This document shows, piece after piece, positions 12,435 through 30,183 of a DNA stretch of 32,000 nucleotides. The position numbers and the translations under genes were made by a program. Within the stretch, counting starts at the first letter, position 1. Every line of letters begins with the position of its first letter. This DNA comes from an uncultured Chloroflexia bacterium (GTDB lineage Bacteria; Chloroflexota; Ktedonobacteria; Ktedonobacterales; JADMIN01). The DNA lies in contig CAVRAI010000001.1 in assembly GCA_963718915.1 (NCBI GenBank), forward strand, positions 420,001 through 452,000. Reading direction: 5' to 3'. The notes beneath the pieces are model-generated. The model worked only from the letters and a program-made list of their open reading frames with translations. It had not been told where the DNA came from and ran no database searches.

Positions 12435-12696
12435 ATTGTTTTTCCTGTCCTAAACTACACTGGTTAGCGCGTGTTCATTTTAAGGACTCCTTCCACCTTA
12501 TCCTGTGGATGCCTAGTATAGGCATGTATCCATCCTTTGTCAATGAGCAGCTAGGCAATGATATGTATGTCAAATATAGCAACATGCACGATTCGCATGT
12601 GGGAAGCATTGAATTGACTAGTTGCCGAAATACTTCAGCACCCACGCCGACTACAAGTGCAGGAAGCGACGCGGACACTAAGCGAATTTTGAGCGC

Positions 12697-12729
12697 AAAA
12701 AGACCCAGGCGTTCCGCAACGACCTGGGT
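12697..12729 (-). terminator. rho-independent terminator downstream of tRNA-Asn
   Basis: On the minus strand ACCCAGG (complement of 12723..12729), a 13-nt loop, and CCTGGGT (complement of 12703..12709) are followed by CTTTTT (complement of 12697..12702). It begins 18 nt after the tRNA 3' end. Confidence 0.6.
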
Positions 12730-12746
12730 TATCCTTGTGGGTTTTC

Positions 12747-12821
12747 TGGCTCCTCGGATAGGATTCGAACCTACAACCTAGCGGTTAACAGCCGCCCGCT
12801 CTACCATTGAGCTACCGAGGA
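12747..12821 (-). tRNA. tRNA-Asn (anticodon GTT), 75 nt with encoded CCA
   Basis: Minus-strand sequence TCCTCGGTAGCTCAATGGTAGAGCGGGCGGCTGTTAACCGCTAGGTTGTAGGTTCGAATCCTATCCGAGGAGCCA. Acceptor stem TCCTCGG/CCGAGGA, D-arm GCTC..GAGC, anticodon loop CTGTTAA, T-arm GTAGG-TTCGAAT-CCTAT. Confidence 0.95.
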
Positions 12822-12954
12822 ATATGGACGCGGCGCGAAGCATTCGCCATGCAGGGCCGCAGCCCAAAGTATACACCGCCACGACGGCTGGCGTCAACCT
12901 GACTGAGTGCCATTCTGTGACGCCAACCATCGTGTCTGCAGCCTGGTGCGCGGC

Positions 12955-14370
12955 TTAGCGGCTCTTCACCAACTCGCGCTTCGGCTTGGCCTGCTGCACG
13001 GGCGCGGTGGGCTTGCGCCGGAACCAGCGCTTATACTCTCCAGTCTCCCAGACATCCAGGATCATACTGGCGTTGAAGATCGACGAGAACGTGCCCGACG
13101 CGATGCCGATCAGCAGCGCCAGCGTGAACTCGCGGATGGACTCGCCGCCGAAGAGCGTCAGCGCGGCCAGCGTGAAGAGCACCGTCAGCGACGTGTTGAG
13201 CGAGCGCGTCATCGTCTGCACCAGGCTGGCATTCACCACCGTATCGAACGACTCCGCCGTCCGCCGCCCCATATTCTCACGGATGCGGTCGAAGACCACA
13301 ATCGTATCGTGGACCGAGAAGCCGATGACCGTCAGCACTGCCGTCAGGAAGAGCGAGTCTACCTTGAAGCCGAAGAAGTGGCCGAAGATCGCCCACAGGC
13401 CCAAGACCACCAGCGCATCGTGCAGCAGCGCGATGATGGCGCTGGCGCCGAACCGGAACGACTGGCGCAGGCTGCCCACCTTGCGGAAGGCAATGCCAAT
13501 GTAGAGCAGAATCGCGGCGGCGGCGAAGACCACCGCCAGGACAGCGTCGCGCGTTGTATCGCTTGAAACTGAACCGCTGACTGAGTCAAGACTGGCCGAA
13601 TACGCAGGCCCAAACTCATGAATCAACTGGCTCGTGATGGTGTTCACGTCCTTGGCGTTGTAGGCCGTCTGCGTGTTGATCTGATAGGTCTGATTGTTCG
13701 CGCCCGGAATGACATTCGTCACCTTCACCGCGTGTTGCTCCGCGGTGGGCGCTGGTGTCGCGGTAGCTGTCGGGGCAGCGGTGGCGGTTGCTGTGGCTCC
13801 AGCCGTGGCGGTCGCGCCTCCCGTCGCGCTCGCGGTGGCGTTCGCCGTTGGGGTCGCCGTGCTGGTGGTTTCGACGGGCGGCGGATCGCTCTTAGGCAGA
13901 TCCTGCAGCGCCTTGGTGATATCGCTCGTGCTTACCACCTTATCGAAGAGAATCACCATCTGCGCGGTCGGCGTCTTCGTGTCAGACGGATAGGCGACGG
14001 TATACATCGTCTTCGTGATCACGGCGCCGCTGTCCAGCTTCTGCATCCGCTTGAGCACCTCAGTCGAGACGTTTGCGCCGATGGGGTGATCGAAGGTGAT
14101 ATAGGCATAGCGGTCCGGCGCGGGCGTATTCTTCGTATCGAGTGGCCTGGTCGCCAGCACGTTCACGTCCTGCGCCTTATCTTGCGTCATAACTCGCTGC
14201 ACCTGGTCGGCCGTCACCGAGTTGCTGGCGAAGACGACGTTGACCGTGCTGCCGCCAGTGAAGTCGATACCCAGGTTCAGGCCCCAGAAGATGAGCGCCA
14301 GCAGACCCGGGACGATGACCACCAGCGAGATGCCAAAGAAGAAGTATTTGTAGCGCGTCAGATGAAACAC
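12955..14370 (-). CDS. secF: protein translocase subunit SecF (unusually long, 471 aa)
   Basis: GTG start at 14368..14370 with GGGGAGGAA upstream. The N-terminus FFGISLVVIVPGLLALIFWGLNLGIDFTGGS and the C-terminal TM bundle with FSVHDTIVVFDRIREN are canonical SecF. The periplasmic domain carries a T/A-rich low-complexity insert. Confidence 0.93.
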   Translation of the reverse strand: MFHLTRYKYFFFGISLVVIVPGLLALIFWGLNLGIDFTGGSTVNVVFASNSVTADQVQRVMTQDKAQDVNVLATRPLDTKNTPAPDRYAYITFDHPIGANVSTEVLKRMQKLDSGAVITKTMYTVAYPSDTKTPTAQMVILFDKVVSTSDITKALQDLPKSDPPPVETTSTATPTANATASATGGATATAGATATATAAPTATATPAPTAEQHAVKVTNVIPGANNQTYQINTQTAYNAKDVNTITSQLIHEFGPAYSASLDSVSGSVSSDTTRDAVLAVVFAAAAILLYIGIAFRKVGSLRQSFRFGASAIIALLHDALVVLGLWAIFGHFFGFKVDSLFLTAVLTVIGFSVHDTIVVFDRIRENMGRRTAESFDTVVNASLVQTMTRSLNTSLTVLFTLAALTLFGGESIREFTLALLIGIASGTFSSIFNASMILDVWETGEYKRWFRRKPTAPVQQAKPKRELVKSR

Positions 14371-14541
14371 CGTCTATTCCTCCCCACCGGAAATCGTATT
14401 TGTAGCGCCTGCGCGCCGGGATGTGGGCGTACCGCCGTTACAGTTGTGTAGCCAGAAAACCGCTGCCTTCAAGCATGGATGCATGTCAGAAGTGGCCAGT
14501 TCTTCTTGACAATCCGCAAGCTTTAGGCAGAAAATGCAAGC

Positions 14542-15654
14542 ATGCGTAAGACGTTCAAGTACCGCCTGTATCCCAATAAGCAGCAAAGATGCCTCCTCGA
14601 GCAGCAGCTTGACGAGTGTAGCTGGCTGTACAACGAATTGCTGGCAGCTCGGCGTGACGCCTGGGAACAACGCCTGGAGTCGCTGCGCCTCTATGACCAG
14701 CAGGCGACGTTGCCGCTGCTCAAAGCGGCTCGCCCGTCGTTGGCTACAGTGCAGTCGCAGGTCTTGCAGAACGTTGCGGTACGCATTGATCTGGCCTTTC
14801 AAGCCTTCTTCCGCCGCGTTCGTACTGGTGAGAAGCCTGGCTACCCGCGCTTTCGCGGCAAGGGGCGCTATGACAGCATCACCTATCCCCAGGTGCCGGT
14901 CGGCTGTAAACTGGACGCTGAGGCGCGGCGCGTCCGGCTGCATGGGGTGGGGCTTGTCAAGATCATCTTGCATCGCCCCTTGGCAGGCACACCCAAAACC
15001 GCCACGATCAGCCGCAGCAGTACCGGAAAGTGGTACATCTGCTTCTCGTGCGAGTGTACAGAACCGCCGCCGTTGCCAGCGACTGGCCAACAGGTCGGCA
15101 TTGATGTTGGCTTGAAGACCTTTGCGACGCTTAGTACAGGACAGGAAATTGCCAATCCGCGTTTCTTCCGGGCGGAGGAGAAAGCATTGGCACAGGTACA
15201 GCGCTCGCACAGCACACTCGCCAAGGGGACGCCAGAACGCGCCAAGCATCGCAAAGTCCTGGCGCGGGTGCATGAGCGCATCGCCTGGCGACGCAGCAAC
15301 TTCGCCCACCAGCACAGCCGCCGCATCGTTGACGGCTGTGATCTCATCGCTGTTGAAGATTTGTCGGTCAATCGGATGACGCATACCCATTGTCTTGCGA
15401 AGAGCATCCATGACGTAGCGTGGAGCCAGTTCACAGCCCTCATCGCCTACAAGGCAGCATGGGCCGGTCGGCGGTATGTCGCTGTGAACCCCGCGTATAC
15501 ATCTCAGGATTGCTCGTCGTGTGGCCATCGGCAAACACTCTCCCTTGCTGACCGCATCTATACCTGCTCCTGTTGCGGCATCGTCTTAGACCGCGACTAT
15601 AACGCCAGTCTGAACATTTTGAGACTGGGGCAACAGTCTCTGGCTTCGGCCTAG
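14542..15654 (+). CDS. tnpB: TnpB (IS200/IS605 OrfB) RNA-guided endonuclease, 370 aa
   Basis: The N-terminus MRKTFKYRLYPNKQQ is the classic OrfB start. RuvC motifs are VGIDVGLKTFA (D188), LIAVEDLSV (E272) and LDRDYNASLNI. The zinc finger is CSSCGH...CSCCG. No internal stops. Confidence 0.95.
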   Translation: MRKTFKYRLYPNKQQRCLLEQQLDECSWLYNELLAARRDAWEQRLESLRLYDQQATLPLLKAARPSLATVQSQVLQNVAVRIDLAFQAFFRRVRTGEKPGYPRFRGKGRYDSITYPQVPVGCKLDAEARRVRLHGVGLVKIILHRPLAGTPKTATISRSSTGKWYICFSCECTEPPPLPATGQQVGIDVGLKTFATLSTGQEIANPRFFRAEEKALAQVQRSHSTLAKGTPERAKHRKVLARVHERIAWRRSNFAHQHSRRIVDGCDLIAVEDLSVNRMTHTHCLAKSIHDVAWSQFTALIAYKAAWAGRRYVAVNPAYTSQDCSSCGHRQTLSLADRIYTCSCCGIVLDRDYNASLNILRLGQQSLASA

Positions 15655-15657
15655 AAG

Positions 15658-15677
15658 CTCCCGCATTTATGCGGGAG
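15658..15677 (+). other. 8-bp stem hairpin at the IS right end, overlapping the secD stop codon
   Basis: CTCCCGCA-TTTA-TGCGGGAG, starting 4 nt after the tnpB stop. The secD stop codon (complement of 15667..15669) lies in its loop. Confidence 0.8.
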
Positions 15678-17181
15678 AGTTGTCACTTCCGTTGCCAGTG
15701 GAGGCAGCGCTCGTGTCGTCGTCCCCCTCCTCAACATCTTCTGCCTCAAGCTCTGTTCCAGCAGCTGCCGCGACCGAGCTACCGCCCGCCAGCGCCAGCG
15801 ATCCCGCCCGCTGTGTCCGTCGCTCCGAGGGGCGATAGCGCGGCAGTTTGAGCGCGCTCTGCGGCAGCCCATAGAGGGCTGGATGCTGCGAGATGCCCGC
15901 GAGCTGTAGCACATGCAGGAAGTTCCGCGTCACCACCACCGCCGTGAAGAGGCTGAGCAGCACACCAAGCGCGAGGTTGATGGCAAAGCCGACGATCAGG
16001 GTTGCGCCAAAGTTATTGCCGAACCAGTACAGAATCAGACAGGTAATCAGTGTCGAGAAGTTCGAGTCGCGGATGGAGGGCCAGGCGCGTTTGAAGCCGA
16101 GATCGACGGCGGATGCCATCGTGCGGCCTGCCCGTAACTCCTCTTTCATCCGCTCGAATATCAGGATATTAGCGTCCACCGCCATGCCAATCGTCAGGAT
16201 GACGGCGGCGATGCCCGGCAGCGAAAGGGTGACGCCGAGCAGCTTGATGATGGCGAAGAGCAGCAGCGCGTAGAGAATCAGCGCGAGGTCGGCGATCAGG
16301 CCGGGCAGCCGATAGTAGACCAGCATGAAGAGGATAACCATCCCCAGGCCGACAATGGCGGCGCGAATGCTGAAGTCCAGCGCCTGCTGGCCGATGGTTG
16401 GGGCGATTTCCTGGCTGCTGACCACGTTCAACGGCAGCGGCAACGCGCCATATTTGAGCAGCGCCGCCAGATTCTGGGCGTCGGTAATGTTGCCGATGCC
16501 GGTAATCTGACCGTTGCCATCGATCTCACTCTGGATAGTCGCCGACTCGATCACGGTGTTATCAAGGGTAATTGTCAGTGGTTGACCGATGTGTTGGGCA
16601 GTATAGGTGGCAAAGTCGGTTTTGGCTTTGCCAGTAAAGGCGAAGGTGACAATCGGCTTGCCGCTACTTGAATCGAGGCCGGCAGAAATTTGATTGGTGT
16701 CGAGCTGCGCCCCGGTAAAGCGGACGGGATACTGTCCCGGCGTGACTTTGTCGCCGACCTGAACCGCAGTGGTGGCGCCAGACGTATCGATGATATTCAT
16801 TTCGCCGGTCTGACCCAGGAGGGCGCTGGCCTGTGCGGCGTCGGTGAAGCCGGGAAGTTCGACCAGCACCTTGTCGCCGCTGGCGCGCACCGAGGCTTCG
16901 CTCACCGCGAGGCCCTGCGCGATACGCCGGTTGATATTATCAACCACCTGTGGCATCACCGACTGTACGTCGCACTTGGGCTGCGCCTGCGGACAACTTG
17001 CCTGGAACACGAACTGGACGCCACCTTGCAGGTCCAGACCTTGCCGTAGCTGGAGATTATTCTGATATCCGGCAACGTTGATCGATGGCCAGTGAAACAC
17101 ACTCTGGAAGTCGACGTAGAATGCGCCCCCTGCCAGCAATAGAACGAACAGGAGAAAGAGCAAAGTCTTGCCACGACGCAT
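15667..17181 (-). CDS. secD: protein translocase subunit SecD, 504 aa
   Basis: ATG at 17179..17181 with GAGGGGGA upstream. An N-terminal TM helix is followed by a large periplasmic domain (LGLDLQGG), then a C-terminal 5-TM bundle with MAVDANILIFERMKEE. It has a long low-complexity C-terminal tail whose last 3 codons lie in the IS hairpin. Confidence 0.93.
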   Translation of the reverse strand: MRRGKTLLFLLFVLLLAGGAFYVDFQSVFHWPSINVAGYQNNLQLRQGLDLQGGVQFVFQASCPQAQPKCDVQSVMPQVVDNINRRIAQGLAVSEASVRASGDKVLVELPGFTDAAQASALLGQTGEMNIIDTSGATTAVQVGDKVTPGQYPVRFTGAQLDTNQISAGLDSSSGKPIVTFAFTGKAKTDFATYTAQHIGQPLTITLDNTVIESATIQSEIDGNGQITGIGNITDAQNLAALLKYGALPLPLNVVSSQEIAPTIGQQALDFSIRAAIVGLGMVILFMLVYYRLPGLIADLALILYALLLFAIIKLLGVTLSLPGIAAVILTIGMAVDANILIFERMKEELRAGRTMASAVDLGFKRAWPSIRDSNFSTLITCLILYWFGNNFGATLIVGFAINLALGVLLSLFTAVVVTRNFLHVLQLAGISQHPALYGLPQSALKLPRYRPSERRTQRAGSLALAGGSSVAAAAGTELEAEDVEEGDDDTSAASTGNGSDNSPA

Positions 17182-17645
17182 GGAGAATTATCCCCCTCGC
17201 TTAGTTTCTCCGGGCGACGGCCAAAGTGACTTGCTGGCCCGGATGGCGCCCATCCTCGCGCTATCCCGAAAGTTCACATCAGGTATGCTGATCCATTGGC
17301 TTCAGGAGTAGGCAAGATTACAGATAGTGGAACCAGGACATTATCCTGGCTAGTATAGCTGAGACGCGGCCCACTGTCAAATCGCGCATGACCGCCTTAA
17401 CCCGCTCTCCGTCAGGGTTGGCAGCTTCTGTCGCTGGAGTTGCTCTGACGCTGAAACGTTCGGTCTGATAGTAGGTGCGCTCGTATTCATCATAGGGTAC
17501 TACGCGACGAAGATGCTCTGGGTTCCCAACGGCAAGACATTTGGTGGGGGTGTTGGGACGGGCCTCACCCCCAGCCCCTCACCCACAGGGAGAGGGGAGC
17601 CAGAGCGTGGCTGCCACTCTGCGGACTTTCCATTGGTATCACTGG

Positions 17646-19787
17646 CTATTTCCCCACCGCCATATCATCGTCACCGTCCAGCGAGGATTCATCATTTTCG
17701 TCGGCATCGCTACTTGCCTGGTCGAGGCGTGCCGCGGTTCGGAGGCATTGCTCCAACCAATCCGACGCGCCATCGGCGATTTTGACGTCGCTGTCATCCA
17801 TCGGGCGGCTATGTTTGAATGCATTGCGGGCATTCAGCACAGAGCTAAACATCTGCTCGAATCGCGGCTTCTGGCCGAAGACATCCTGGAACAGACTCCA
17901 GTTGTAGAGGATGATCTGGGGATAATCGCTGAACTGACAATGCTCCAATTTGACTTCGAGAGACTCGAACTGGCCAGCCTCGAACGGGTTATGCTGCACG
18001 CGCTGGCTGATGCGCTGCTCAATTTTGGAGCGCGTATCGCCGGGCATGCCGCGTTTCCACGCGAGCGCGCCGAACTCACGCTCAAGGCGCAATCGAATGA
18101 TCTGGCGTATCGAGTCTTCCAGCGTGTCGATATGTGTCTCCAATAAAGCCAGCGCGCTCGTCGCCCACGTCGCCGGGGCATCCATCAACGATTGCAGCAG
18201 ATTATTGATCTCATTGGCGAGTTGCGTTCGGCGTCGTAGCGTAAATTCTTCGTACTGATCGAGTGTCCAGAGGGCGCTGTCCATGGGAACGCTCTGGGCA
18301 ACGAGGCGCGACGGCTCAATCGTGCTCAGATATTCGGACGGCGCCTGGCTGGAGATACGGCCATTCGCCCTCGCGGAGAGAAACGCCAGGTTCGCCACCT
18401 GATTGATGACGCGGCTATCTTGTCGCAGGTCATAGCGAGTCTTGAGCAATGCCTTGGGGAAGATATGATGGTACTCGAGTGTCTGGTTGCCGCCAATCGC
18501 GACCCCGTTAAACCAGTCTTGCGCATGGGCGCGTCGCGCGAGCACATACGCCATGAGCATGTAGGGTGAGTTGTTGAGTTGATCCTGTAGCTCACGCTCG
18601 GTGACGGGGCGCTTGCCAACCTTATCCTCGATGTTCTGGATCATGCGCTGGATGGGCTGATCGTTATCACGTAGCAGCGCCGCGATATCCTGGTCGAGAT
18701 TTGTCTCCGTCGGCCCAGTGTAGCGCGACCAGATCAGCGCCAAGTAGAGCCAGCGCCGCAGATCGCGTGTCTGCTGCTCGGTGACACTCTGACCAAAGTG
18801 GTCGAAGAACACCGAGAGTGGCACGAGCACATAGTCGGTCGGCATCATCGAGAGGCGATCAATCAGGCAGTTTTGGACAAGAAAGTCAATGGCTTGCGTC
18901 ATCGCGGGCCTGGCGCGGCGCCACGCCGCCTGCAAATCCTCCACACCGAGATGCTCGCGCCCGCTACGGAATAACTGGCTTAAGCGACTCTGACTGGTGA
19001 GGAGTGCGGTGAGCACACGCAGCAGGATACTGTAATCCAGTTCCCATCCTCGCTGACGGATGTGATAGAGGTAGTTGTCAAACTCTTCGGTCACGCCACG
19101 CCACCTGCTCGATACCTGCGCCAGCGCGAGATCGGCGCTATTGAGCTTTGTGCCTCCGGAGTTGATGCGGACGAAGATATGCGTGACTTCCTCGTAGCTC
19201 AGACCTTCCAGCACATTGAGGCGGTACTTGTAGCTGCGGATGTTATCCAGCGCATTGATGCGCTCATAGGCCGCGTCTCCCTCAGGAGTGCCGAACTCCA
19301 ACTTCAAATCGCGGAGAATAGTCGCCGCACCCTGGGTAAAGAGGCGCGTCAGCGAGACCCATCCAGCCTGGGCATGGTGCGCCGCGCTGGCAACCTCAAA
19401 CTTTGGATCATAGACATTGAAGACGATATCAATCGCGCGTGTCCGCCACCTGACATGCAGCGGATTTCCGAGCATCACAGCGGCGAGCGAGGTCATGCGT
19501 TGCTGCCCATCGAGCAACAGTCGCGGGCGACGGTCTGGGGCGGCAATACCTGTAAGACCAAGTGAGCGCGAGTACGGTAGATCATCAGTATCCCAGACGA
19601 GGAGTTGCCCGCTGGGGTAGTTGTGATAGAGCGAATCGAAAAAGTCGCGCACCTGGGTTGAATCCCAGACATAGGCGCGCTGCATCTCTGGCAGGAGCAG
19701 CCGTCCATCGCGAATATCCTCTACAAGCGATTGAATGCCTTTGTCTTCGGTCGTAATCACGCGATACTCCTCTGCGCAGCCATACAT
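17646..19787 (-). CDS. GmrSD-like three-domain protein: DUF262 (ParB-like NTPase/nuclease) + DUF1524 (HNH/His-Me finger-like) + C-terminal Swt1-type HEPN, 713 aa
   Basis: ORF-track frame 17646..19841(-); start chosen at the ATG 19785..19787 (MYGCAEEY...). DUF262 signatures are LLLPEMQRAYVWD and LLLDGQQR. The DUF1524-like motif is LEYHHIFPKALL...VANLAFLSARANGRIS. The C-terminal helical domain has RNAFKH (R at 17826..17828, H at 17811..17813), matching the HEPN Rx4H motif. Confidence 0.85.
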   Translation of the reverse strand: MYGCAEEYRVITTEDKGIQSLVEDIRDGRLLLPEMQRAYVWDSTQVRDFFDSLYHNYPSGQLLVWDTDDLPYSRSLGLTGIAAPDRRPRLLLDGQQRMTSLAAVMLGNPLHVRWRTRAIDIVFNVYDPKFEVASAAHHAQAGWVSLTRLFTQGAATILRDLKLEFGTPEGDAAYERINALDNIRSYKYRLNVLEGLSYEEVTHIFVRINSGGTKLNSADLALAQVSSRWRGVTEEFDNYLYHIRQRGWELDYSILLRVLTALLTSQSRLSQLFRSGREHLGVEDLQAAWRRARPAMTQAIDFLVQNCLIDRLSMMPTDYVLVPLSVFFDHFGQSVTEQQTRDLRRWLYLALIWSRYTGPTETNLDQDIAALLRDNDQPIQRMIQNIEDKVGKRPVTERELQDQLNNSPYMLMAYVLARRAHAQDWFNGVAIGGNQTLEYHHIFPKALLKTRYDLRQDSRVINQVANLAFLSARANGRISSQAPSEYLSTIEPSRLVAQSVPMDSALWTLDQYEEFTLRRRTQLANEINNLLQSLMDAPATWATSALALLETHIDTLEDSIRQIIRLRLEREFGALAWKRGMPGDTRSKIEQRISQRVQHNPFEAGQFESLEVKLEHCQFSDYPQIILYNWSLFQDVFGQKPRFEQMFSSVLNARNAFKHSRPMDDSDVKIADGASDWLEQCLRTAARLDQASSDADENDESSLDGDDDMAVGK

Positions 19788-19855
19788 CAATATCCACCAC
19801 CATTGTATCAGCAAACAGCCAGACGCTCCACTCCATCCCATCGCGGTATCTGCTG

Positions 19856-19880
19856 ATTCGCCGTAGCGTTCACGCTACGG
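19856..19880. repeat. hairpin repeat CGTAGCG-TTCA-CGCTACG with conserved 5' flank
   Basis: 19856..19879 is identical to 4313..4336 (24 nt). Confidence 0.85.
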
Positions 19881-19936
19881 TCTGCCTCGCGCACCACGAC
19901 GTATAGTGTTCGGAAGAAAAAGTAAAAGTACATAAT

Positions 19937-20025
19937 GCCGCGGCTAATCCCGCCCGATGGGTTCGCTCGGTGGTCTCAAGTGGTTACCAACCGTCCAGGA
20001 TTAGCCGTGGTCTTCAGGCCACGGC
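19937..20025. repeat. REP/BIME-like inverted pair (left unit truncated)
   Basis: GGCTAATCC (19942..19950) and its reverse complement GGATTAGCC (19998..20006) start 56 nt apart. The right unit continues into the hairpin GCCGTGG-TCTTCAGG-CCACGGC (20004..20025), which ends 9 nt before the jetC-like stop codon. Confidence 0.8.
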
Positions 20026-20033
20026 GCGCCCCA

Positions 20034-23000
20034 CTACCGCCTTGGGATGACCACCTCGTCCTCGGCGTCATCTACGTCTGGCGCGGGGGCGGCGCGCAGG
20101 TGAAGCGCCTCGCGGGCGATCAGCCCGTTGGGAAGCTGGCGCAGACGATAGGCGGTGGCGTAGTTGACGCCCTCGGAGAAGAGGTCGAGGTTGGGGCTGG
20201 CGATCACCAGGCCCATGCCCAGTTGCTGCGCGAAACGCACCACCAGGTCGGCGTTGCGCTGATCCATCCGGGCGAACGCCTCGTCGTGCATCAAGAGACG
20301 TAGCGGCGCGTTCGAGACGGCGAACTGCATCGCCGCCGCTGTCAGCAGCAGCACATAGACCGGCACGCGCTGCTCGCCGCCGCTGCCGAAGCCAGAGACC
20401 GCGCTATCCCACGGGCGCACGCGCGGATCGAGGTCGTCGCAGTGTAGCAGGGAGATTTCCACCCAGCGGCGATAATCGAGCTGCTCGACCAGCGCCTCAA
20501 CCGACGCCTGCGCCTCGCCTTTCATCTGCTCATCCAGCCAACCCGCGAAGATCGCCGTCAACTGCCCCTGCACGCCCGCGGGCATCGCATGGCCATGCTC
20601 GAGCAGCGCCGCCGCCACGGCGACATGATCGAAGGGGATATCCCCGTGGCGCGTCAGCCGCACCGAAAGCTTGAGCGAGAAGCGCGTGTTACGGGCGAAG
20701 AAGCGCGCGGTCTGTAGCCGCTCGTTCAGGCCGTTGATGATGCTGTCGGCGCGGGTCAGCTGGTCGACCAGATGGCTCACCACCTCGCCCAGAATGATCT
20801 CGCGCACGACGCGCGTCACCCGTTGCGAGAGATTTTGCTGCAACTGGTCAATGGTCACGCTGAGGAAGTTGAGCAGCAGCCGGATATCGCTAGTGCCCTC
20901 CAGCCGCGGCGCGACATTCAGCAGCCAGCCCTGCGGAGCCAGCGCCAGCGCGTGTTTGCTTGGCGAGCGCAGGCCGAAGCGGTCGTCGGCGCCGACCATC
21001 GCCTGATACTCGGCGACCGCCACGAGAAAGCCCTCCTGCTCGCGCTCGGCGGCGCTGAACGCGCGCGGCAGGTCGTCGTCGAGGCGCTGGCGGCTCTCGC
21101 GTCCCTTCATCGTCTGGCGGGCGTAGCGCACTGGATCATCCACCTGGTTGGCGGGCAGATCGAGGCTATCGGCGACCGCATGCAGCAGCGCGCCGAAGGC
21201 GGTATTGCGCTCGTTGAGCTGGTGTGTCGCCTGCTCTGCCGTCTGCGCCTGGTGGTCGCGCTCCTGTTTGGCGGCATCCTGCTGGTGCAACGCGATGCCT
21301 TTAGCGACGCCCGTCTTGCGCGCGTTTTCCTCCGCCGCCTTCAGCTGTCGCTGAAGCTGTGTGATACGCGCCTCGACATCCTCCAGACCCGCCGCCCGCA
21401 GCGCGTTGCGCGCCTGATTGAGCAGCCGCTGCGCCTCGATCACTTTCTGGTCCAGCGTATCCATCTGCGCCCGCGCCATGCCGTAGGTCTCGCTCTCGAC
21501 ATCGTGCGCGTCTTCGGCGGTGCGCACGCGCGAGTGCAGTTGTTCCAGACGGCTGCGCGTCTCGGTGATGCGGGTGATGGTATCGGCCACCGCCTGTTGT
21601 AGCGCGGCCCGCGCGCGCGCCAGCATCGCGGGATCGTCCAGCGCGGGATAGGCGGCGGTCGCGTCGTCCCAGCGTCCGCGCGCGTCGTCTTCATCGGCGG
21701 CGGCGTCCTGCACGGCGCGCCCGGCGGCGGTCAGCCTGACGGCGGCCTCTTCCTCCGTCTGGCGGAGCGACTTCATCTCGCTGCGGCGCTGCTCCACCTC
21801 CTCCAGCATATGCGCCACCTCGGAGAAAGCGCGCACCCGTCCCTCGGCCTCACGGGCTGCCTCGCGTTCGGCCTTCAGCGACGCGCGCAGGTCATCCAAC
21901 TCGCGCAGAAGGGTGTTCTGCTCGCGGGCCAGCTCCTCGCGGCGGGCGGCGGCGGCGGCCTGGCGACGCACCACGCCAATCAGCGCCTCGGCGCGGCGGC
22001 GCAATCGCACCGTTCCCGCGATATCGCCCAGACGATAGCGGCCATCCTGGCAGAGGTAGTCGCCGTTGCGAGGTGGATCCTGCACCAGCGCCACGCTGCT
22101 AAAGACGGCGTCGAGATAGCGGCGCGCGTCGGGCGAATTGGTGACCAGCACCGTGGCGAGCGCGTTTTTGATCGGCTTGCCCCCGGCTGCAGTCGACTGC
22201 AGCACATGCCAGTCCACCTCGCCACTTGCCGCCGCCCGCGCCCGCTCCAGCGGCAGCGTGGTGGTCAGCAGCGTCAGCACATCCAGGTGCTCCAGCAGCC
22301 CTTCGATGGCCTCGCCCCAAGGCACACCCTCGCGCGCCAGATCGAGCGCGCGATAGAATGGAGCGGCGGAGCCATCGGCCTGGCGCAGTCGCCCCAGCGC
22401 GTGTTCGCGCTCCGGCGAGAGTGGCGGGATTGGCTCGGTCTGCGTCTGGCTCGTCTCGTGTTCGATCTCAGCCAGCTTCGCCTCGACCTCGGCGATACGC
22501 ACCTCCAGCCGGGCGGCGCGGGCGCTGGCTTCATGCACCGCCGTATGGGCGCGATCCAGTTCCTCCTGGCAGTTCTGCATCAGCGGCGGCAGCGCCATGG
22601 TGCTCGGTTCCTCACCGGGCGTCCGGCCCAACACACCGCCGGGCCAGCGGTTGACCATCCGGTCCCACCGCGCCCAGAGCGCCTGCCGCGCTGATTGCAA
22701 GGCTCGTTGCGCCGCCTCGTGCTGGGTGCGCGCCTCTCGCTCGTCCTGGCGAGCGTCGGTGGTCGTGCGGCTGGCCTCCACGATGCGCTTGGCATGGGCG
22801 TCCAGCCCGGCAAGCTCGCCATCCGTCGCGACCCAAGCGCCATGCAGCACGTCGGCCAGAATCTGGTCGCCCGGCTCGGCGATGTTCTGCTTCCAGGCAT
22901 CCTGGAGCGTGGCAGGCAGGGCGCCCAGCGCCTTCGCGCCACGGTCGCGCAGTTCGGAGAGACGCGCCCGCGCGCTTTCCTCCTCGGAGCGCAGATGCTG

Positions 23001-24203
23001 GCGGGCGGACGCCACTGACGTTTCCGAGCGCTGGAGCCGCTCTTGCGCCTGACGTAGCTCGCGCTCGGCCCGGTCTTGCTCGCGTTGGGCCGCATCGACT
23101 GCCTCATTGGCGTGGGCCACCGCCTGCACCACCTCGCCCTGGTGCAACTGCTGCAGCGCGTCCAGTTCGCGGCGGTTCGCGCCCTCCTCGGCGTAGGCGG
23201 CCTCTTCGCTGACCTCGGCCTGGCGCGCCTCCGATTCGGCCTCGCGCAGCTTCGCCTCAGCCGTGGCGAGCGCCTGGGCGGCGTCATCGCTGGCCCACTG
23301 CGTCCGCAGCCAGGTCATGCCGGCATGGGTGAGCGCCGCCTCATGGTATTTGCGCCGCGCCTCGACCACGCCGCCAAGCATCGCGCTCAGCTTGCCATAT
23401 TCTTCGATGTCGCGATGAATCCGCTGGATGCCTTCCAGTCCCTCGACCAGCCGCTCCAGGTGGGGGCGGTCGACGATGGGCAGGAAGTGGCGGACGACGC
23501 CGCTGGGATCCGAGACGAGCGCATCGTCCACTTTGAGGCCGAGCATGCGGTGTAGCACGTCGTAGAGCGCATCGTAGCGGCGCTGCCAGTCGGCGCCTTC
23601 GATATTGAGCAGCCGCCGCGCCACCAGCCGGTTATAGTCCTCGGCCTGGGTGGCGTTGAAGACCGCGCCGCCGGTATTGACGAATGTCTCGTTGCGCGCG
23701 CGGAAGTCCTGCATCTGGAGGGGCGCCTGTCCCTGCGCCGTGACCTCCAGAAAGGCAATCTGATCGAGCATGGTTGGCAGCGCGTAATACCACGGGTGCG
23801 AAGAGTGGGGAGTCGCCGCCGCCGCCGCGCCATAGACCCAGCGCCCCTCGCCTTCGTGCTCGATCTCCACCGCGCAGTAGCCGACGGTGCGCTGTCGCCG
23901 CCAGCCTTTATTGGCGTGCTCGATGCCGTGCGGATCGAAGAAGAGGATCGTGTTACTGAGGGTGCGTTTGCTGGTGCGCCCGCCCTCGCGCGCGGCGGCG
24001 TTGAACTGTTTGTTGGAAGTGGGGAAGAGCGCCCAGTCTATCGCGTCGAGAATCAGCGACTTGCCGGAGCCGTTCTCGCCGATGATGGCGAGCATATCGC
24101 CCATCACGTCGAGAGTGGCGTTTTCGTGGCCGTGCCAGTTAATCAGGCGGATGCGGCGAATCCACGCGCGTCCCTGCGGTCCCTGTGGCGCCCGACTGCT
24201 CAT
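20034..24203 (-). CDS. jetC: SMC-like ATPase of the JetC/MksB type, 1389 aa
   Basis: The N-terminal head is IRRIRLINWHGHENATLDV...IIGENGSGKSLILDAIDWAL (Walker A at 24057..24080). It is followed by about 900 aa of A/E/R/Q-rich coiled coil. The C-terminal head has SGGEQ (signature), LLMHDEAF (Walker B, D at 20283..20285) and GLVIASP. The start overlaps the upstream stop in ATGA, with AAGGAGG upstream. Confidence 0.85.
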   Translation of the reverse strand: MSSRAPQGPQGRAWIRRIRLINWHGHENATLDVMGDMLAIIGENGSGKSLILDAIDWALFPTSNKQFNAAAREGGRTSKRTLSNTILFFDPHGIEHANKGWRRQRTVGYCAVEIEHEGEGRWVYGAAAAATPHSSHPWYYALPTMLDQIAFLEVTAQGQAPLQMQDFRARNETFVNTGGAVFNATQAEDYNRLVARRLLNIEGADWQRRYDALYDVLHRMLGLKVDDALVSDPSGVVRHFLPIVDRPHLERLVEGLEGIQRIHRDIEEYGKLSAMLGGVVEARRKYHEAALTHAGMTWLRTQWASDDAAQALATAEAKLREAESEARQAEVSEEAAYAEEGANRRELDALQQLHQGEVVQAVAHANEAVDAAQREQDRAERELRQAQERLQRSETSVASARQHLRSEEESARARLSELRDRGAKALGALPATLQDAWKQNIAEPGDQILADVLHGAWVATDGELAGLDAHAKRIVEASRTTTDARQDEREARTQHEAAQRALQSARQALWARWDRMVNRWPGGVLGRTPGEEPSTMALPPLMQNCQEELDRAHTAVHEASARAARLEVRIAEVEAKLAEIEHETSQTQTEPIPPLSPEREHALGRLRQADGSAAPFYRALDLAREGVPWGEAIEGLLEHLDVLTLLTTTLPLERARAAASGEVDWHVLQSTAAGGKPIKNALATVLVTNSPDARRYLDAVFSSVALVQDPPRNGDYLCQDGRYRLGDIAGTVRLRRRAEALIGVVRRQAAAAARREELAREQNTLLRELDDLRASLKAEREAAREAEGRVRAFSEVAHMLEEVEQRRSEMKSLRQTEEEAAVRLTAAGRAVQDAAADEDDARGRWDDATAAYPALDDPAMLARARAALQQAVADTITRITETRSRLEQLHSRVRTAEDAHDVESETYGMARAQMDTLDQKVIEAQRLLNQARNALRAAGLEDVEARITQLQRQLKAAEENARKTGVAKGIALHQQDAAKQERDHQAQTAEQATHQLNERNTAFGALLHAVADSLDLPANQVDDPVRYARQTMKGRESRQRLDDDLPRAFSAAEREQEGFLVAVAEYQAMVGADDRFGLRSPSKHALALAPQGWLLNVAPRLEGTSDIRLLLNFLSVTIDQLQQNLSQRVTRVVREIILGEVVSHLVDQLTRADSIINGLNERLQTARFFARNTRFSLKLSVRLTRHGDIPFDHVAVAAALLEHGHAMPAGVQGQLTAIFAGWLDEQMKGEAQASVEALVEQLDYRRWVEISLLHCDDLDPRVRPWDSAVSGFGSGGEQRVPVYVLLLTAAAMQFAVSNAPLRLLMHDEAFARMDQRNADLVVRFAQQLGMGLVIASPNLDLFSEGVNYATAYRLRQLPNGLIAREALHLRAAPAPDVDDAEDEVVIPRR

Positions 24204-25048
24204 GCGTCGCCTCCTTCGTCGTCATCATCATTCTCGGCGAGATCGTCATGAGCCACCAGCCCGGCGGGCGGTAGGAAGCGGTCGATCAGGTCGGTGAACT
24301 CGTAGACGCCGCTGAAGTCGCGCTCGTCCAATTTAAACTGCTCGCCGGGCAACTGGCGGTCGTCGGCGCCGATGCGGCGAATCAGCCGGTAGCGCTCGAA
24401 GGCGGCAAACGCCTGGTAGAATGCCCGCTGGTTGGCGCGCACGCGCTGGGCGGCGCTCGCCCGCACCGGGGCGGACGTTTTGGCGCGGCTGGTGGTGGCC
24501 GTCGCGGTTGCGGTTGCGCCTGACGCGCCGCGCTTGCGGCTGCGGGAGGCGGGCTTCTCTTCCGCCAGTTCCTCATCATCTTCGGCGTCGGCCTCGCCAC
24601 GGGTCGCCAACGCCTCGTTGATGATCGCCTCGTCGAAGCTGAGCCAGGGCGAGAGCCGCTGCCCCTCCTCGGCGACATAGCGGAAAAGCTCGGAGAAGCG
24701 GAAAACGGTGGCGGAGTCGCCCGATTCGAGCAGGCGCACGCTGCGATAGGCGCGAATCAGGCAGGCGTAGGCGGTCTGTTTGCGGGCGGTCAGCTCGAAG
24801 ACATCGGCCACCAGTAGCTCGCGCTGGCGTGGCGCGGTGGGCCAGTAGGCGCGCGCCCAGCGTCCAAGGCGCAGTTCCAGCCGCGCGCCCAGCTCATCCT
24901 CGAAGAAGCGCTGCTCGCCGATGTAGTGCTGCGTGAGCCAGAGAAACTCGTCGGGCGACTCATCCTGCAGGATCGCGGCCTGCTCGATCAGCATGCGCCG
25001 CACCCGTCGCGCCAAATCCTGCTCGCGTTGTCCTGTGTATGTTGGCAT
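24200..25048 (-). CDS. JetB/MksE-position protein (DUF4194-like by architecture), 282 aa
   Basis: ORF-track frame 24200..25111(-) opens with TTG. I prefer the ATG at 25046..25048, preceded by GGAG. The product is helical, with an internal low-complexity insert (EADAEDDEELAEEKPASRSRKRGASGATATATATTSRAK) and an acidic tail. It is translationally coupled to the SMC-like gene. Family assignment rests on position, size and a loose motif resemblance. Confidence 0.6.
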   Translation of the reverse strand: MPTYTGQREQDLARRVRRMLIEQAAILQDESPDEFLWLTQHYIGEQRFFEDELGARLELRLGRWARAYWPTAPRQRELLVADVFELTARKQTAYACLIRAYRSVRLLESGDSATVFRFSELFRYVAEEGQRLSPWLSFDEAIINEALATRGEADAEDDEELAEEKPASRSRKRGASGATATATATTSRAKTSAPVRASAAQRVRANQRAFYQAFAAFERYRLIRRIGADDRQLPGEQFKLDERDFSGVYEFTDLIDRFLPPAGLVAHDDLAENDDDDEGGDA

Positions 25049-25158
25049 GTGTGTCGTCTCCGGTTGATAGTCGCTACTGATGTTGCTGGCGATAATAGGC
25101 TCTTTGCCCAATGTAGCAAGGGCCGAGTAATCCGGCGCTGTTTGTCCTGGGTTTCCGT

Positions 25159-25260
25159 GCCGCAGGCTGAAGCCCTGCGGCTAATCCCGCACGTTCAGCG
25201 CGCTTGCCGCCAGCATGCGGATACCGAACGGTCAGGATTAGCCGCGGCATTCATGCCGCG
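25159..25260. repeat. complete REP/BIME-like inverted pair
   Basis: Left unit: hairpin GCCGCAGG-CTGAAGC-CCTGCGGC (25159..25181) running into GGCTAATCC (25179..25187). Right unit: GGATTAGCC (25235..25243) running into the hairpin CGCGGCA-TTCA-TGCCGCG (25243..25260). The two 9-mers start 56 nt apart, as at 19942/19998. Confidence 0.85.
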
Positions 25261-25295
25261 AAGGTGGAGCACCACTCCTCGCGCCCATTCGCCCC

Positions 25296-27335
25296 CTACC
25301 GCCCCGGTGGCGTGCCGCCCGCATTGCGCCGCCCGAGAATGCCAAAGGGCCAGCGCCGTCCGTTCTGGTCTGCTTGCCCGGACTGCGGCTGCGAATCGTC
25401 CAGTGGCGCGGTCTCTGGCGCGGCCAGTGGGTGCGTGCCTGCCGAGCCGAGTGAGATGGCAGGCAGCGGGCGCGTACTCTGGGTCGGCCCATCCTCAGGG
25501 CCAGACAAATCTTCCAGCGGGATGGTGGCGGGCGCCTCACCCAGCACCTCAGGCGTCGTCGGCGAGGGACTCGTCGGCGCCACACGCACACTCCCGCCGC
25601 CGCCCATTCCGCCTCCGCCACCAGCGGCCACCCGGCGCATCGGCACGTCGCGGCTGCCACTGGCGATGGCGCTCAGTTGGGCAGCGGCCTCGCGGGCAAC
25701 GTGGGTCACATCGACGGCCTGCTGGCGGGCGGCGGTTGTCGCGCTGAAGCGGTAGTTATCCATCTCGACCTCGAATCCTGGCCCGGTCAGCAACGCCCGC
25801 CGAGTCATCCCCGCGCCGGGCGCCTGAATGCGCAGCCCCAGCCGCCGCAGTGGCGAGCTATCGCGTGGCAGCCAGAGGAACGATGCCAGCAGCCGCAGTT
25901 CATCGAGCGATTCAATATGGGCCAGTCCCGCCGCAGAGCCTGACGCGATCAGCCGCTCGATCAGCCGAGCGCGCGCGTCTTCCAGCTCGCGGATGCGCGG
26001 ATCGTCGTCCGGCTGCCAGTTATCGGGCGTCACCAGCACGGATGGCGGCGGCGGCGGCGCGGGACGATGGCGCGGTCGGATTGACTTCTGCCAGATATCG
26101 TCGTCGACCAGCGGCAATGGCGAGCCGCCGCGATGCTCCAGCCAGCGCTCCAACCGTACCCCCGCGTCGCTGGCGGGCGGCGACTGCACCCAGAGTCCGG
26201 CATGGACCGCGCCTGAGGCGTTCCAGAGATAGGTACGCGCGCGCGCCGTCGCCTCCGCGCCACCCTCGGCCAGATCGCGCGCGCGCCGCAACAGCGCCGT
26301 AATCGCCTGCGTCTGTTGTAGGCGGAGTGAGATCGCCGCGTGGATGCGCTCGGTGAGATCGACCAGCGCCAGGCTGATGAGCCGCGCGCCCTCGCGCCAG
26401 GAGCCAGGGCCGCTCTCCGCCATGAAGCGCTCGAAGTTATCCAGCTCGCGCGCGACATCGCGCACGACGGCATCCAGCCGCTGATGGCGCTCGTCCTCAG
26501 TCTCGCCCAGGCCGACGCTCCACTCCTCCTCGCGTTTGCGCAAGACATCCTGCAACTGGTGGACGTTCTCGCCCGCGTGGCGCTCATCGCGCAGTGTCTC
26601 CAGCCGCTCGCGCACTTTGGCGGCGCCCTCGGAGGCGACCCGGAAGAAGCGCTCGTGGAGGACGCCCAGGCGGTCGGCAATCTCGGCGAGAATCTCCGGG
26701 TGATCGCCGTCTACTCGCAGCGCGCGTAGCTCGCGGGCGAAGTCGCGCGACTCCGTGTTGATGCCGTGGAGCGCCTGACGCAGCGACTGCCACGCCGAAT
26801 GACAGCGCAAGGGGTCGGAGTCCTGGTAGCCCAGTTCTTCGAGCAGGGTATCCAGCGCGGCGATAGCCTGAGCGAAGTAGTTGGCGCTGAGGCTGATATA
26901 GCGGCGACGCAGCGCGCGCTGAATCTCATCCCAGTGGGGCAGGAAGACACGGAGTGATCGCGCCAGGGCATAGTCGCGCTCGACCCGCCGCCGCAAGCCA
27001 TCGCGCTCGGCGCGTTCGGGGGCGAGGCCGCCGTCGACCGCCTGCCAGCCCTCGAGTTGGCGCAACACCTCGACGATCTCGGCGCGTGGGTCGTCGCCAT
27101 TGGGCTGGCCGCGATAGCGGAGGACGGCATCGAGGTCGGCGGCCAATTCATCCACCGAGACGCCGACTCGTCCCTGCGCCTCCTGCTCGCGGAGCGACGC
27201 CACCAGAATCGAGCGGCGCATCTGGCGCACGCCGCCTTCCTCGCCGACGAGGGCGCGCAGAAACTCTGGCGGCCCGGCAATAAGCGCCTCGGCCGCCCGT
27301 GAGATCGTTTCTATGCGCTGTGCGTCGGTGGCCAT
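25296..27335 (-). CDS. large alpha-helical protein in the JetA/MksF (kleisin) position with a disordered G/P/S/T-rich C-terminal third, 679 aa
   Basis: Full ORF with ATG at 27333..27335, first gene of the co-directional cluster. About 500 aa of R/E/L/A-rich helical sequence are followed by PRHRPAPPPPP and a GGGGGMGGGGS...PTSPSPTTPE tail. No catalytic motif is visible. The role is inferred from gene order only. Confidence 0.55.
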   Translation of the reverse strand: MATDAQRIETISRAAEALIAGPPEFLRALVGEEGGVRQMRRSILVASLREQEAQGRVGVSVDELAADLDAVLRYRGQPNGDDPRAEIVEVLRQLEGWQAVDGGLAPERAERDGLRRRVERDYALARSLRVFLPHWDEIQRALRRRYISLSANYFAQAIAALDTLLEELGYQDSDPLRCHSAWQSLRQALHGINTESRDFARELRALRVDGDHPEILAEIADRLGVLHERFFRVASEGAAKVRERLETLRDERHAGENVHQLQDVLRKREEEWSVGLGETEDERHQRLDAVVRDVARELDNFERFMAESGPGSWREGARLISLALVDLTERIHAAISLRLQQTQAITALLRRARDLAEGGAEATARARTYLWNASGAVHAGLWVQSPPASDAGVRLERWLEHRGGSPLPLVDDDIWQKSIRPRHRPAPPPPPSVLVTPDNWQPDDDPRIRELEDARARLIERLIASGSAAGLAHIESLDELRLLASFLWLPRDSSPLRRLGLRIQAPGAGMTRRALLTGPGFEVEMDNYRFSATTAARQQAVDVTHVAREAAAQLSAIASGSRDVPMRRVAAGGGGGMGGGGSVRVAPTSPSPTTPEVLGEAPATIPLEDLSGPEDGPTQSTRPLPAISLGSAGTHPLAAPETAPLDDSQPQSGQADQNGRRWPFGILGRRNAGGTPPGR

Positions 27336-27994: not shown

Positions 27995-28843
27995 CTAGTA
28001 GCGCAGGTCGAGGTCGATGCCCACGTCATGGCCCATCTTGAGCACTTCGAGGCGATGTGACTCCACCAGTTGCTGGTCGCGCGCGTGCATCGCGGTGCTG
28101 GCCCAGGCGCGTTCGCGCGGACGCCAGAGCAGATGCTCGACGAACATCGGCCACATGCTCGCGGTAATCTTTTCGACCATATGCTTCGTCTTCTGGGTCG
28201 CGCGCGTCAGCAGCAGCTTCTCGTAACAGACGCCCGCGCCGTGGTGGATGCCGTCGTCGATGGCGAGCCGCGTGCAGATCTCGGCGAGGATAGTGCCGGG
28301 AGCCGCGCTGGCAATCTGGTGGAAGCGTGGGATCACGAGGCCCTCATAAGCGACCTGGAGCAGCCAGATTTTCTCCTCGATGGTATCTACTTCCATCGCC
28401 AGTTTGGAGAGCTTTTCCAGGAATGGATCAGGCTCGCAGGTGCCGCCGACGGTATCGGAGAGCTGGAGCCACGCCTCGAAGTGACGCGCCTCATCCTGCG
28501 CCATCGTCGAATAGTAGAGCTTGGCCTCCGCGTCGGATGCGTCGGCGAGGAGTTGCACCGAAAGCTGGGCGGCGATCATGTCCGCCTGAAGCTGCTGTGT
28601 CACGACCGAGCGCCACATCGCCAAGCGGCGTTCCTGTTTCTCGGCGGAGCCGCGTCCCTCAGGCACTCCAGGAATCTTGCCCCATGAGAGCTGCCGGACA
28701 TCCCATGCCTGCCGCTTGGCGAGTCCGTAGAAGCGTTTCATGCCTTCCGCGGTCTGTGCGCTGATGTTTCCGGCGTCTATCCGTGCAGCCTCTACTTCTT
28801 CCGGCGCAACCGCAAAGGCGTTATCTGTTGCCTCAATCGCCAC
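27995..28843 (-). CDS. ferritin-like di-iron carboxylate superfamily protein, 282 aa
   Basis: GTG start at 28841..28843. Two metal-ligand-type motifs, MAQDEARHFEAW (ExxH) and AIDDGIHHGAG (DxxH), sit in predicted long helices. The specific family is not assignable by eye. Confidence 0.7.
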   Translation of the reverse strand: MAIEATDNAFAVAPEEVEAARIDAGNISAQTAEGMKRFYGLAKRQAWDVRQLSWGKIPGVPEGRGSAEKQERRLAMWRSVVTQQLQADMIAAQLSVQLLADASDAEAKLYYSTMAQDEARHFEAWLQLSDTVGGTCEPDPFLEKLSKLAMEVDTIEEKIWLLQVAYEGLVIPRFHQIASAAPGTILAEICTRLAIDDGIHHGAGVCYEKLLLTRATQKTKHMVEKITASMWPMFVEHLLWRPRERAWASTAMHARDQQLVESHRLEVLKMGHDVGIDLDLRY

Positions 28844-30153: not shown

Positions 30154-30183
30154 GCCGCAGGCTGAGAGCTATGCGGCTAATCC
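30154..30183. repeat. single REP-like unit (reverse orientation)
   Basis: The hairpin GCCGCA..TGCGGC (30154..30177) runs into GGCTAATCC (30175..30183). It lies between convergent genes. Confidence 0.75.

Follow-up and report, generated by a model that had tools for sequence, protein, structure and literature searches.

In a 32,000-nt stretch of contig CAVRAI010000001.1 from an uncultured Ktedonobacterales bacterium (below, "the window" means the whole of this stretch), three minus-strand genes, which we call A, B and C, encode proteins that resemble the Wadjet (JetABCD) defence systems, and a fourth gene on the same strand, just past C, encodes a 713-aa protein with DUF262 and DUF1524 domains. 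Our analysis favours, at a probability of roughly 0.65, a locus made of two unrelated units that lie side by side: a vertically inherited, condensin-like triad derived from type II Wadjet and lacking the nuclease subunit JetD, and an autonomous DUF262 restriction gene. We would describe the three genes as a JetABC-II-like set that has diverged strongly and comes without JetD. An earlier reading of the same DNA, made from the letters and open reading frames (ORFs) alone (the sequence-only reading), had suggested that the triad is a Wadjet-like sensor coupled to the neighbouring nuclease, swapped in for JetD. Much of its description of the locus proved right: the ORFs confirm its four co-directional minus-strand genes, the motifs that it named in C, the ATGA overlap of B and C and the AAGGAGG upstream of C were all located, and the likeness of the triad to Wadjet or Mks was borne out, specifically as a likeness to type II (a JetC2 match of C at 8e-72, JetB2 signals in B and a fold match of A to chain E of PDB entry 9qe0). 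The proposed coupling was not supported by the comparison with related genomes.

The three genes and their likeness to type II Wadjet

Gene C (20034..24203, minus strand) encodes a 1389-aa ATPase of the structural maintenance of chromosomes (SMC) kind, and its sequence relates it to type II JetC over the full length, the long coiled coil included. The PADLOC model JetC2 (PDLC00553) covers residues 104-1347 with profile positions 94-1322 of 1361; the top PDB sequence match is 9qe0_A, the JetC of the Neobacillus vireti Wadjet-II, with an end-to-end alignment; and the top NCBIfam match is TIGR02680, at 167.5 bits, under the 462.85-bit cutoff of that family. The protein carries GENGSGKS at residue 42, SGGEQ at 1274 and LLMHDEAF at 1303, and the Walker A, signature and Walker B motifs are unchanged in all loci that cover that part of C. 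The sole sequence signal of MukB/E/F type in the whole triad is a match of C to MukB_N (E = 0.0073, 16.5 bits vs a 23-bit cutoff).

Gene B (24200..25048, minus strand) encodes an acidic protein of 282 aa. It shares the ATGA overlap with C, and AAGGAGG precedes the start of C by 6 nt; by this arrangement C is translationally coupled to B. The longest ORFs of both B and the DUF262 gene have earlier starts; we placed the start of B at MPTYTGQRE, since this N-terminus is invariant in 30 homologs. At default thresholds B gave no match in Pfam, NCBIfam or PADLOC. A relaxed, member-by-member scan of its family gave sub-threshold matches to PF09661 (DUF2398) in 24 of the 30 members, with residues 7-60 lying on profile positions 193-247 of 363, and PADLOC returned JetB2 models only, in 23/30 and 6/30 members. 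Comparison of B by hhalign with three Streptomyces TIGR02678 proteins gave E = 4.7e-5 over 149 columns (residues 2-164 on 208-384), where mismatched control pairs gave E = 0.3-0.7. JetB-II is a tandem KITE (kleisin-interacting tandem winged-helix element) protein with four winged helices, 388 aa long in Neobacillus; its length in general is ~360-440 aa, vs 282 aa for B, which aligns to one lobe only. On protein length and alignment range, B probably has one KITE lobe, akin to the second lobe of the JetB-II tandem. Structure added little here: the AlphaFold2 model of B was poor (pLDDT, the predicted local distance difference test score, of 47), Foldseek on that model returned nothing meaningful, and an hmmsearch of the PDB with the A and B profiles yielded noise only (HflX, Scc3).

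Gene A (25296..27335, minus strand; 679 aa) is an orphan by sequence. It found no match in Pfam, NCBIfam or PADLOC even at E = 10, a HMMER profile search of 1.84e9 representative proteins retrieved just 27 proteins, every one a member or a fragment of the A family itself, and hhalign against Streptomyces JetA-II was not significant. The first ~530 residues are conserved; the remaining ~150 (25296..25760, residues ~530-679) form a disordered, proline-rich tail, in which TRPLP, PTxPL and a terminal GRRxWPF..GRRN are conserved across the family. The AlphaFold2 model of A (pLDDT 67) predicts a helical domain at the N-terminus, then a long bundle of helices, a disordered linker and, at the C-terminus, a winged-helix-like module of helices and strands. 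When this model was searched against the PDB with Foldseek, a single match was significant, 9qe0_E (495 aa; E = 3.9e-6, probability 1.0); the next had E = 0.12, and MukF chains appeared weakly, at ranks 28-35. We take chain E to be the JetA kleisin because it has 495 aa, whereas JetB has 388 aa and JetC 1371 aa. The model of A thus matches only the JetA-II structure and suggests a kleisin-like protein with a JetA-II-like fold. The family placement that the sequence-only reading had anticipated was reached for C (JetC2), stayed below threshold for B (DUF2398/JetB2) and was not obtained by sequence for A.

Set beside type II Wadjet (JetABCD-II; TIGR02677/02678/02680/02679; nvJET-II, PDB 9QE0/9QE1), the triad is alike in the full-length homology of its SMC protein, in the kleisin-like fold predicted for A, in the DUF2398-type signals of B, and in its A-B-C order with B-C coupling and ribosome-binding site. 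It is unlike type II in having no JetD (TIGR02679/DUF2399), in an A that cannot be recognised by sequence, is ~180 aa longer and ends in the disordered tail, in a B of apparently one lobe vs a tandem KITE of 363-441 aa, in the low score of C (167 bits vs the 463-bit TIGR02680 cutoff), and in being vertical and sometimes dispersed vs the compact, mobile Streptomyces plasmid operon. Towards other relatives the signals are fainter: when A and B were compared by hhalign with the JetA and JetB of type I-like systems (Rhizobium, Methylobacterium), E was 0.14-0.33, which is not significant, and family scans of A and B returned no MukE, MukF, DUF3375 or DUF4194 matches. Since Pfam, NCBIfam and PADLOC at default settings miss both A and B, systems of this kind will be read as a lone "JetC" plus a chance neighbour.

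Inheritance and likely role of the triad

A scan of GTDB species genomes with C, which lists carriers only, gave 45 Ktedonobacterales-type loci (L numbers below denote individual loci; identities for loci are those of the best tblastn segment). The homologs of A, 142 in number, all come from Ktedonobacterales (Chloroflexota) and are 54-94% identical, and the best 120 of 284 homologs of B are of Ktedonobacterales type, 72-96% identical. The gene order ferritin-like gene, A, B, C, secD, secF is repeated in relatives whose C is 69-96% identical to that of the window. Counts for the region downstream of C rest on 25 species-representative loci with at least 3 kb of sequence past C; in 18 of these C lies near secDF, with secD less than 700 bp past C in 12 and separated from it by 1.3-6.7 kb of variable DNA in the other 6. 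C is also the better conserved gene, its identity exceeding that of both SecD and SecF in 14/14 loci (means of 78%, 69% and 65%, respectively) and co-varying with that of SecD (r = 0.92) and SecF (r = 0.94). Together, these patterns give the triad the look of an old set of genes, vertically inherited in an uncultured Ktedonobacterales clade and kept at a fixed chromosomal site next to secDF.

At the same time, the three genes do not always travel together. B and C are adjacent in every locus where both were detected, and B-C pairs occur without A within 10 kb in L014, L017, L018, L026 and L048; in L002 and L003, A is found by itself, surrounded by metabolic genes; and C is solitary among housekeeping genes in L019, L031, L041 and L045. 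In deeper-branching Ktedonobacteria, with C 48-59% identical, a solo C lies beside ThiF, Fpg, a histidine phosphatase or XseA. One locus, on a 5.07-Mb Ktedonobacterales contig (L001), has a Bro-N gene of the phage or mobile-element type between A and B, at 12149..13051. The metagenome-assembled genome (MAG) SMAG_U2012 contains two triad loci (L004 and L028, whose C proteins share 96% and 71% identity with that of the window), which are either paralogous triads or the product of a bin mixing two species. Two further loci (L044 and L048, C 81-89% identical) are filed as "Proteobacteria" MAGs, probably through bin contamination.

No gene for a JetD nuclease was found near any of these triads, in agreement with what the sequence-only reading had noted for the locus. 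Pfam and PADLOC detected no JetD or Toprim ORF in the window; a Streptomyces JetD-II query (tblastn and phmmer) found nothing in the window or in the fetched Ktedonobacterales loci, within 10 kb in 45 loci; and the precomputed Pfam contexts of related loci contained no Toprim, DUF2399 or DUF2220 family. The confinement of the triad to one lineage, its stable position, a conservation higher than that of a Sec component, genes that can be dispersed and the lack of a nuclease together amount to a housekeeping-like behaviour. Defence systems typically evolve fast and move horizontally. Measured as a compact, horizontally mobile and patchy defence operon, the triad does not fit, being lineage-restricted, syntenic with secDF and sometimes dispersed. 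A search of a plasmid collection gave distant C-terminal matches only, and from these came one reference type II operon, on a Streptomyces plasmid in the order TIGR02677-02678-02680-02679, and otherwise type I-like operons.

Since the triad has no nuclease subunit, its job is likely to be in chromosome folding and segregation, by analogy with MksBEF and MukBEF, and its evolutionary behaviour supports such a role; it would probably not cleave plasmids. What it shares with MksBEF/MukBEF is the combination of an SMC protein with a protein predicted from its model to be kleisin-like and one that looks KITE-like by sequence, with no nuclease nearby, and a chromosomal, housekeeping-like behaviour. 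The caveat in the sequence-only reading that nuclease-less MksBEF condensins exist turned out to be the right reading of the triad. Given its affinity to type II, the triad would be a lineage independent of MksBEF/MukBEF. In section 11 of the Wadjet-II preprint, MukBEF/MksBEF are hypothesised to be domesticated Wadjet, and nuclease loss is suggested to lock such a system into chromosome segregation (bioRxiv 10.1101/2025.03.10.642339). The Ktedonobacterales triad looks like an independent example of such domestication, starting from type II, and, if confirmed, would be a second natural case of a DNA-shape-sensing immune motor turned chromosome organiser. The accompanying changes would be a kleisin that has diverged beyond sequence recognition and has a motif-bearing tail, a KITE apparently reduced from a tandem to a single lobe, and genes that have become free to separate.

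In the mechanism we propose, C would dimerise through its hinge, the N-terminal domain of A would bind the neck of one C and its C-terminal winged helix would bind the other C at its cap, and A would also join two motor units as a dimer. B, probably a homodimer of single KITE lobes, would bind the central part of A, and ATP turnover in the assembled complex would drive extrusion of DNA loops along the chromosome.

Several points weigh against reading the triad and the DUF262 gene as a chromosomal condensin next to an unrelated restriction gene. The tie between A and JetA is one fold match of a medium-confidence model (pLDDT 67, template modelling score 0.21-0.28), with no sequence signal beside it; all matches of B lie under curated thresholds, and its model is poor. 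The tail motifs of A could bind a partner or bring in an effector. C and the DUF262 gene point in the same direction, and the latter has kept its slot in two lineages ~8% apart. Finally, the JetD negative covers the window and the related loci, and a JetD/MksG elsewhere in the genome is conceivable because gene A itself can be unlinked.

Some of these points also serve an alternative that we consider possible, if a good deal less probable than a chromosomal role, namely that the triad is still a Wadjet acting in plasmid or phage defence, either with its nuclease encoded elsewhere in the genome or in a non-cleaving manner, by silencing or mis-segregating plasmids. Its nearest characterised relatives are defence systems, the ability of the triad genes to be unlinked leaves room for an unlinked nuclease, and the conserved C-terminal tail of A is docking-like. 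On the other hand, a defence system would not typically be conserved above SecD/SecF, keep a fixed synteny over an identity range of 58-97% and be confined to one lineage, and the 45 loci hold no JetD within 10 kb.

Less probable still is that A, B and C belong to no common complex, and that C is a stand-alone repair ATPase like Rad50 or SbcC with A and B as unrelated neighbours. Such a reading would suit the weak matches of C to Rad50, RecF and SbcC head motifs, the genomes with a solitary C and the want of any sequence-level family for A. It sits poorly with the match of C to JetC2 over its full length, coiled coil included, with the translational coupling of B and C and their adjacency wherever both are detected, and with the specificity of the partner signals, B pointing to JetB2 only and the fold of A to JetA-II only.

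The DUF262 gene and its insertion between C and secD

The DUF262 gene (17646..19787, minus strand) encodes a protein of 713 aa, with the start set by a database protein of 713 aa that is 100% identical. Its sequence makes it a BrxU/GmrSD-type (type IV restriction-like) gene. PF03235 (GmrSD_N) matches at 1.2e-24 and PF07510 (GmrSD_C) at 25.6 bits vs a cutoff of 23, and the characteristic residues are DGQQR at 93, HH at 440 (EYHHIFP), NQVAN at 462 and RNAFKH (Rx4H) at 654. The top PADLOC family is HEC-05 (6.5e-44), which corresponds to BrxU, a stand-alone GmrSD-like defence protein, and the top PDB match is BrxU itself (7p9k_A of 7P9K; 5.6e-10). The C-terminal domain is probably a HEPN domain of the Swt1 type: PF18731 (HEPN_Swt1) matches at E = 0.004 and 17.8 bits vs a 27.5-bit cutoff, the PADLOC model PDC-M34B matches the same domain at 1e-15, and a homolog, P0365, has a precomputed PF18731 match. 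The DUF262/DUF1524 assignment of the sequence-only reading was accordingly right, with both families above cutoff, and its HEPN assignment is weakly supported, below threshold. The protein resembles BrxU, GmrSD and HEC-05 in having DUF262 with DGQQR and the DUF1524 His-Me motif in a single polypeptide, encoded by a lone accessory gene found in varied contexts; it is unlike BrxU and GmrSD in its extra, PDC-M34B-like C-terminal domain of ~180 aa with the Rx4H motif. This domain architecture is a common one: more than 3,000 homologs exist, and among the matches listed the full-length ones of ~700 aa are mostly labelled Chloroflexota.

Alignment of both flanks with the nearest relatives that lack the DUF262 gene (L005, L024, L037 and L007) showed that homology ends near 19933 and 17604, which delimits an insertion of ~2.33 kb (approximately 17604..19933, minus strand) that contains the DUF262 gene only, with 57% G+C and 70% G+C at third codon positions (GC3). 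The DUF262 gene was found in none of the 25 species-representative loci. In 8 metagenome contigs the slot between C and secD holds an ortholog, P0268 (86% identical), and these contigs are no closer relatives of the window than loci without the gene are: the nucleotide identity of C to the window is 91.8% for the P0268 contigs and about 92% for L005, L024 and L004, which lack it. Since carriers are no closer than non-carriers, and since the DUF262 gene itself is 83% identical at the nucleotide level between the window and the P0268 contigs, the insertion represents an accessory gene that evolves fast and is polymorphic for presence or absence. Elsewhere the slot between C and secD contains TPR, GT87, Schlafen/AlbA_2, hydrolase, nitroreductase or Mrr_N genes, and it is thus a variable spacer rather than a dedicated effector position.

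Base composition separates the two units as well, and the claim of the sequence-only reading that they differ in composition and were acquired separately was upheld: the triad genes have 67-70% G+C and the DUF262 gene 57.5%. A candidate explanation in which the triad itself is foreign high-G+C DNA was ruled out, as its surplus lies at codon positions 1 and 2 (the proteins are rich in Ala, Arg and Glu); with a GC3 of 81-84%, near that of secF and other neighbours, the triad is not compositionally foreign.

The spacer between C and the DUF262 gene (19788..20033, 246 bp) was correctly described in the sequence-only reading as holding repeats like repetitive extragenic palindromes (REP). A 25-nt inverted pair at 19938-19962 and 19986-20010 forms a REP-like inverted repeat (19938..20010, no strand) directly past the C stop codon, in native intergenic DNA, and the same repeat is common to L024 and L037. 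The GGATTAGCCGC motif occurs in 6 copies in the window vs 0.95 expected. A scan for promoters and terminators across the region from C through the DUF262 gene to secD found no consensus promoter for the DUF262 gene; the only conserved promoter is that of secD, a promoter-like TTGACA-17-TATACT at 17380..17352 on the minus strand. Among close relatives the C-secD spacer varies as a mosaic of REP-like elements.

Homologs of the DUF262 protein at 57-79% identity occur in four unrelated contexts (with helicases, in a DUF1156/DUF499 cluster, between beta-oxidation genes and near FecCD transporters), and none of them lies beside an SMC triad. In one of these (L057, 4549..7911) the homolog, at 61% identity, directly follows DUF1156 and DUF499 proteins, the DUF499 one bearing HEPN_Swt1, so that a Swt1-type HEPN recurs near this nuclease family.

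These distributions bear directly on the nuclease swap, in which a JetABC-like motor would sense foreign DNA and hand it over to the adjacent DUF262-DUF1524-HEPN nuclease as the replacement of JetD. The arrangement does have its attractions: the gene follows C on the same strand after 246 bp, the P0268 ortholog keeps the same slot in its 8 contigs, JetD is not present at the locus, and GmrSD-like genes are often embedded, in the same orientation, in other defence systems. Against this stand the absence of the gene from 25/25 loci, equally close relatives included, with the slot empty in 12 of them and otherwise filled by unrelated genes; the homologs, which, outside one narrow clade (P0268, 86%, 8 contigs), are not syntenic with a triad; the discrete, lower-G+C character of the insertion, with REP-like elements upstream; and the fact that BrxU-type proteins act alone. 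Moreover, JetD is activated through specific protein contacts and cannot be exchanged even from one Wadjet type to another, so a casual swap for an unrelated nuclease is less likely. If true, the swap would be a new defence architecture; the comparative evidence argues against it, and we regard it as very improbable. Just as improbable, to our minds, is a recruitment of the gene as JetD replacement in a narrow clade only (the window and L052-L054), with the C-secD slot as a plug-in effector site and docking perhaps through the kleisin tail, an idea for which Mrr_N and Schlafen-like genes in the slot elsewhere offer the basis.

With the triad and the DUF262 gene read as separate units, the latter would have arrived on the ~2.3-kb insertion, present or absent among close relatives, and its product would act as a BrxU/GmrSD-like, NTP-dependent His-Me nuclease against (possibly modified) foreign DNA, independently of the triad.

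Other features of the window

Upstream of A, the ORF at 27995..28843 (minus strand, 282 aa) is the gene that the sequence-only reading had called ferritin-like, a label for which the matches are sub-threshold only (MiaE, R2-like oxidase). At least 8 loci have a conserved copy of this gene next to A on the upstream side, with proteins 58-97% identical. REP-like palindromes with GGATTAGCCGC form inverted pairs ~58 nt apart in intergenic spacers, at 19940-20008, 25177-25245 and 30173-30183 in the window; the second pair (25177..25245, no strand) lies within the 247-bp A-B spacer.

Downstream, secD (15667..17181, minus strand) is the conserved neighbour of C. Between secD and secF lies a clean, solo insert of the IS605 family (14442..15685), whose TnpB ORF (14542..15654, plus strand) has HTH_OrfB_IS605, OrfB_IS605 and Cas12f1-like TNB domains. 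L024 carries a copy at this site with 98.9% identity; L005, L037 and L052 lack the element, and it went undetected in L007. A minus-strand ORF of 386 aa at 14374..15534 is probably a shadow of this element.

We also rejected a reading of the window as a defence island, since its remaining genes are metabolic or housekeeping ones (P450, glycosyl hydrolase, secDF, monooxygenase). A caveat attached to the sequence-only reading, that the two units might simply be neighbours in a defence island, therefore stands as to neighbours and falls as to the island. An Rfam scan of the window returned a tRNA only (12750..12821). Just beyond secF and this tRNA, an 872-aa ORF (9816..12434, minus strand) has weak TPR matches and a GC3 of 48% vs 70-84% in its neighbours, and may be foreign DNA.

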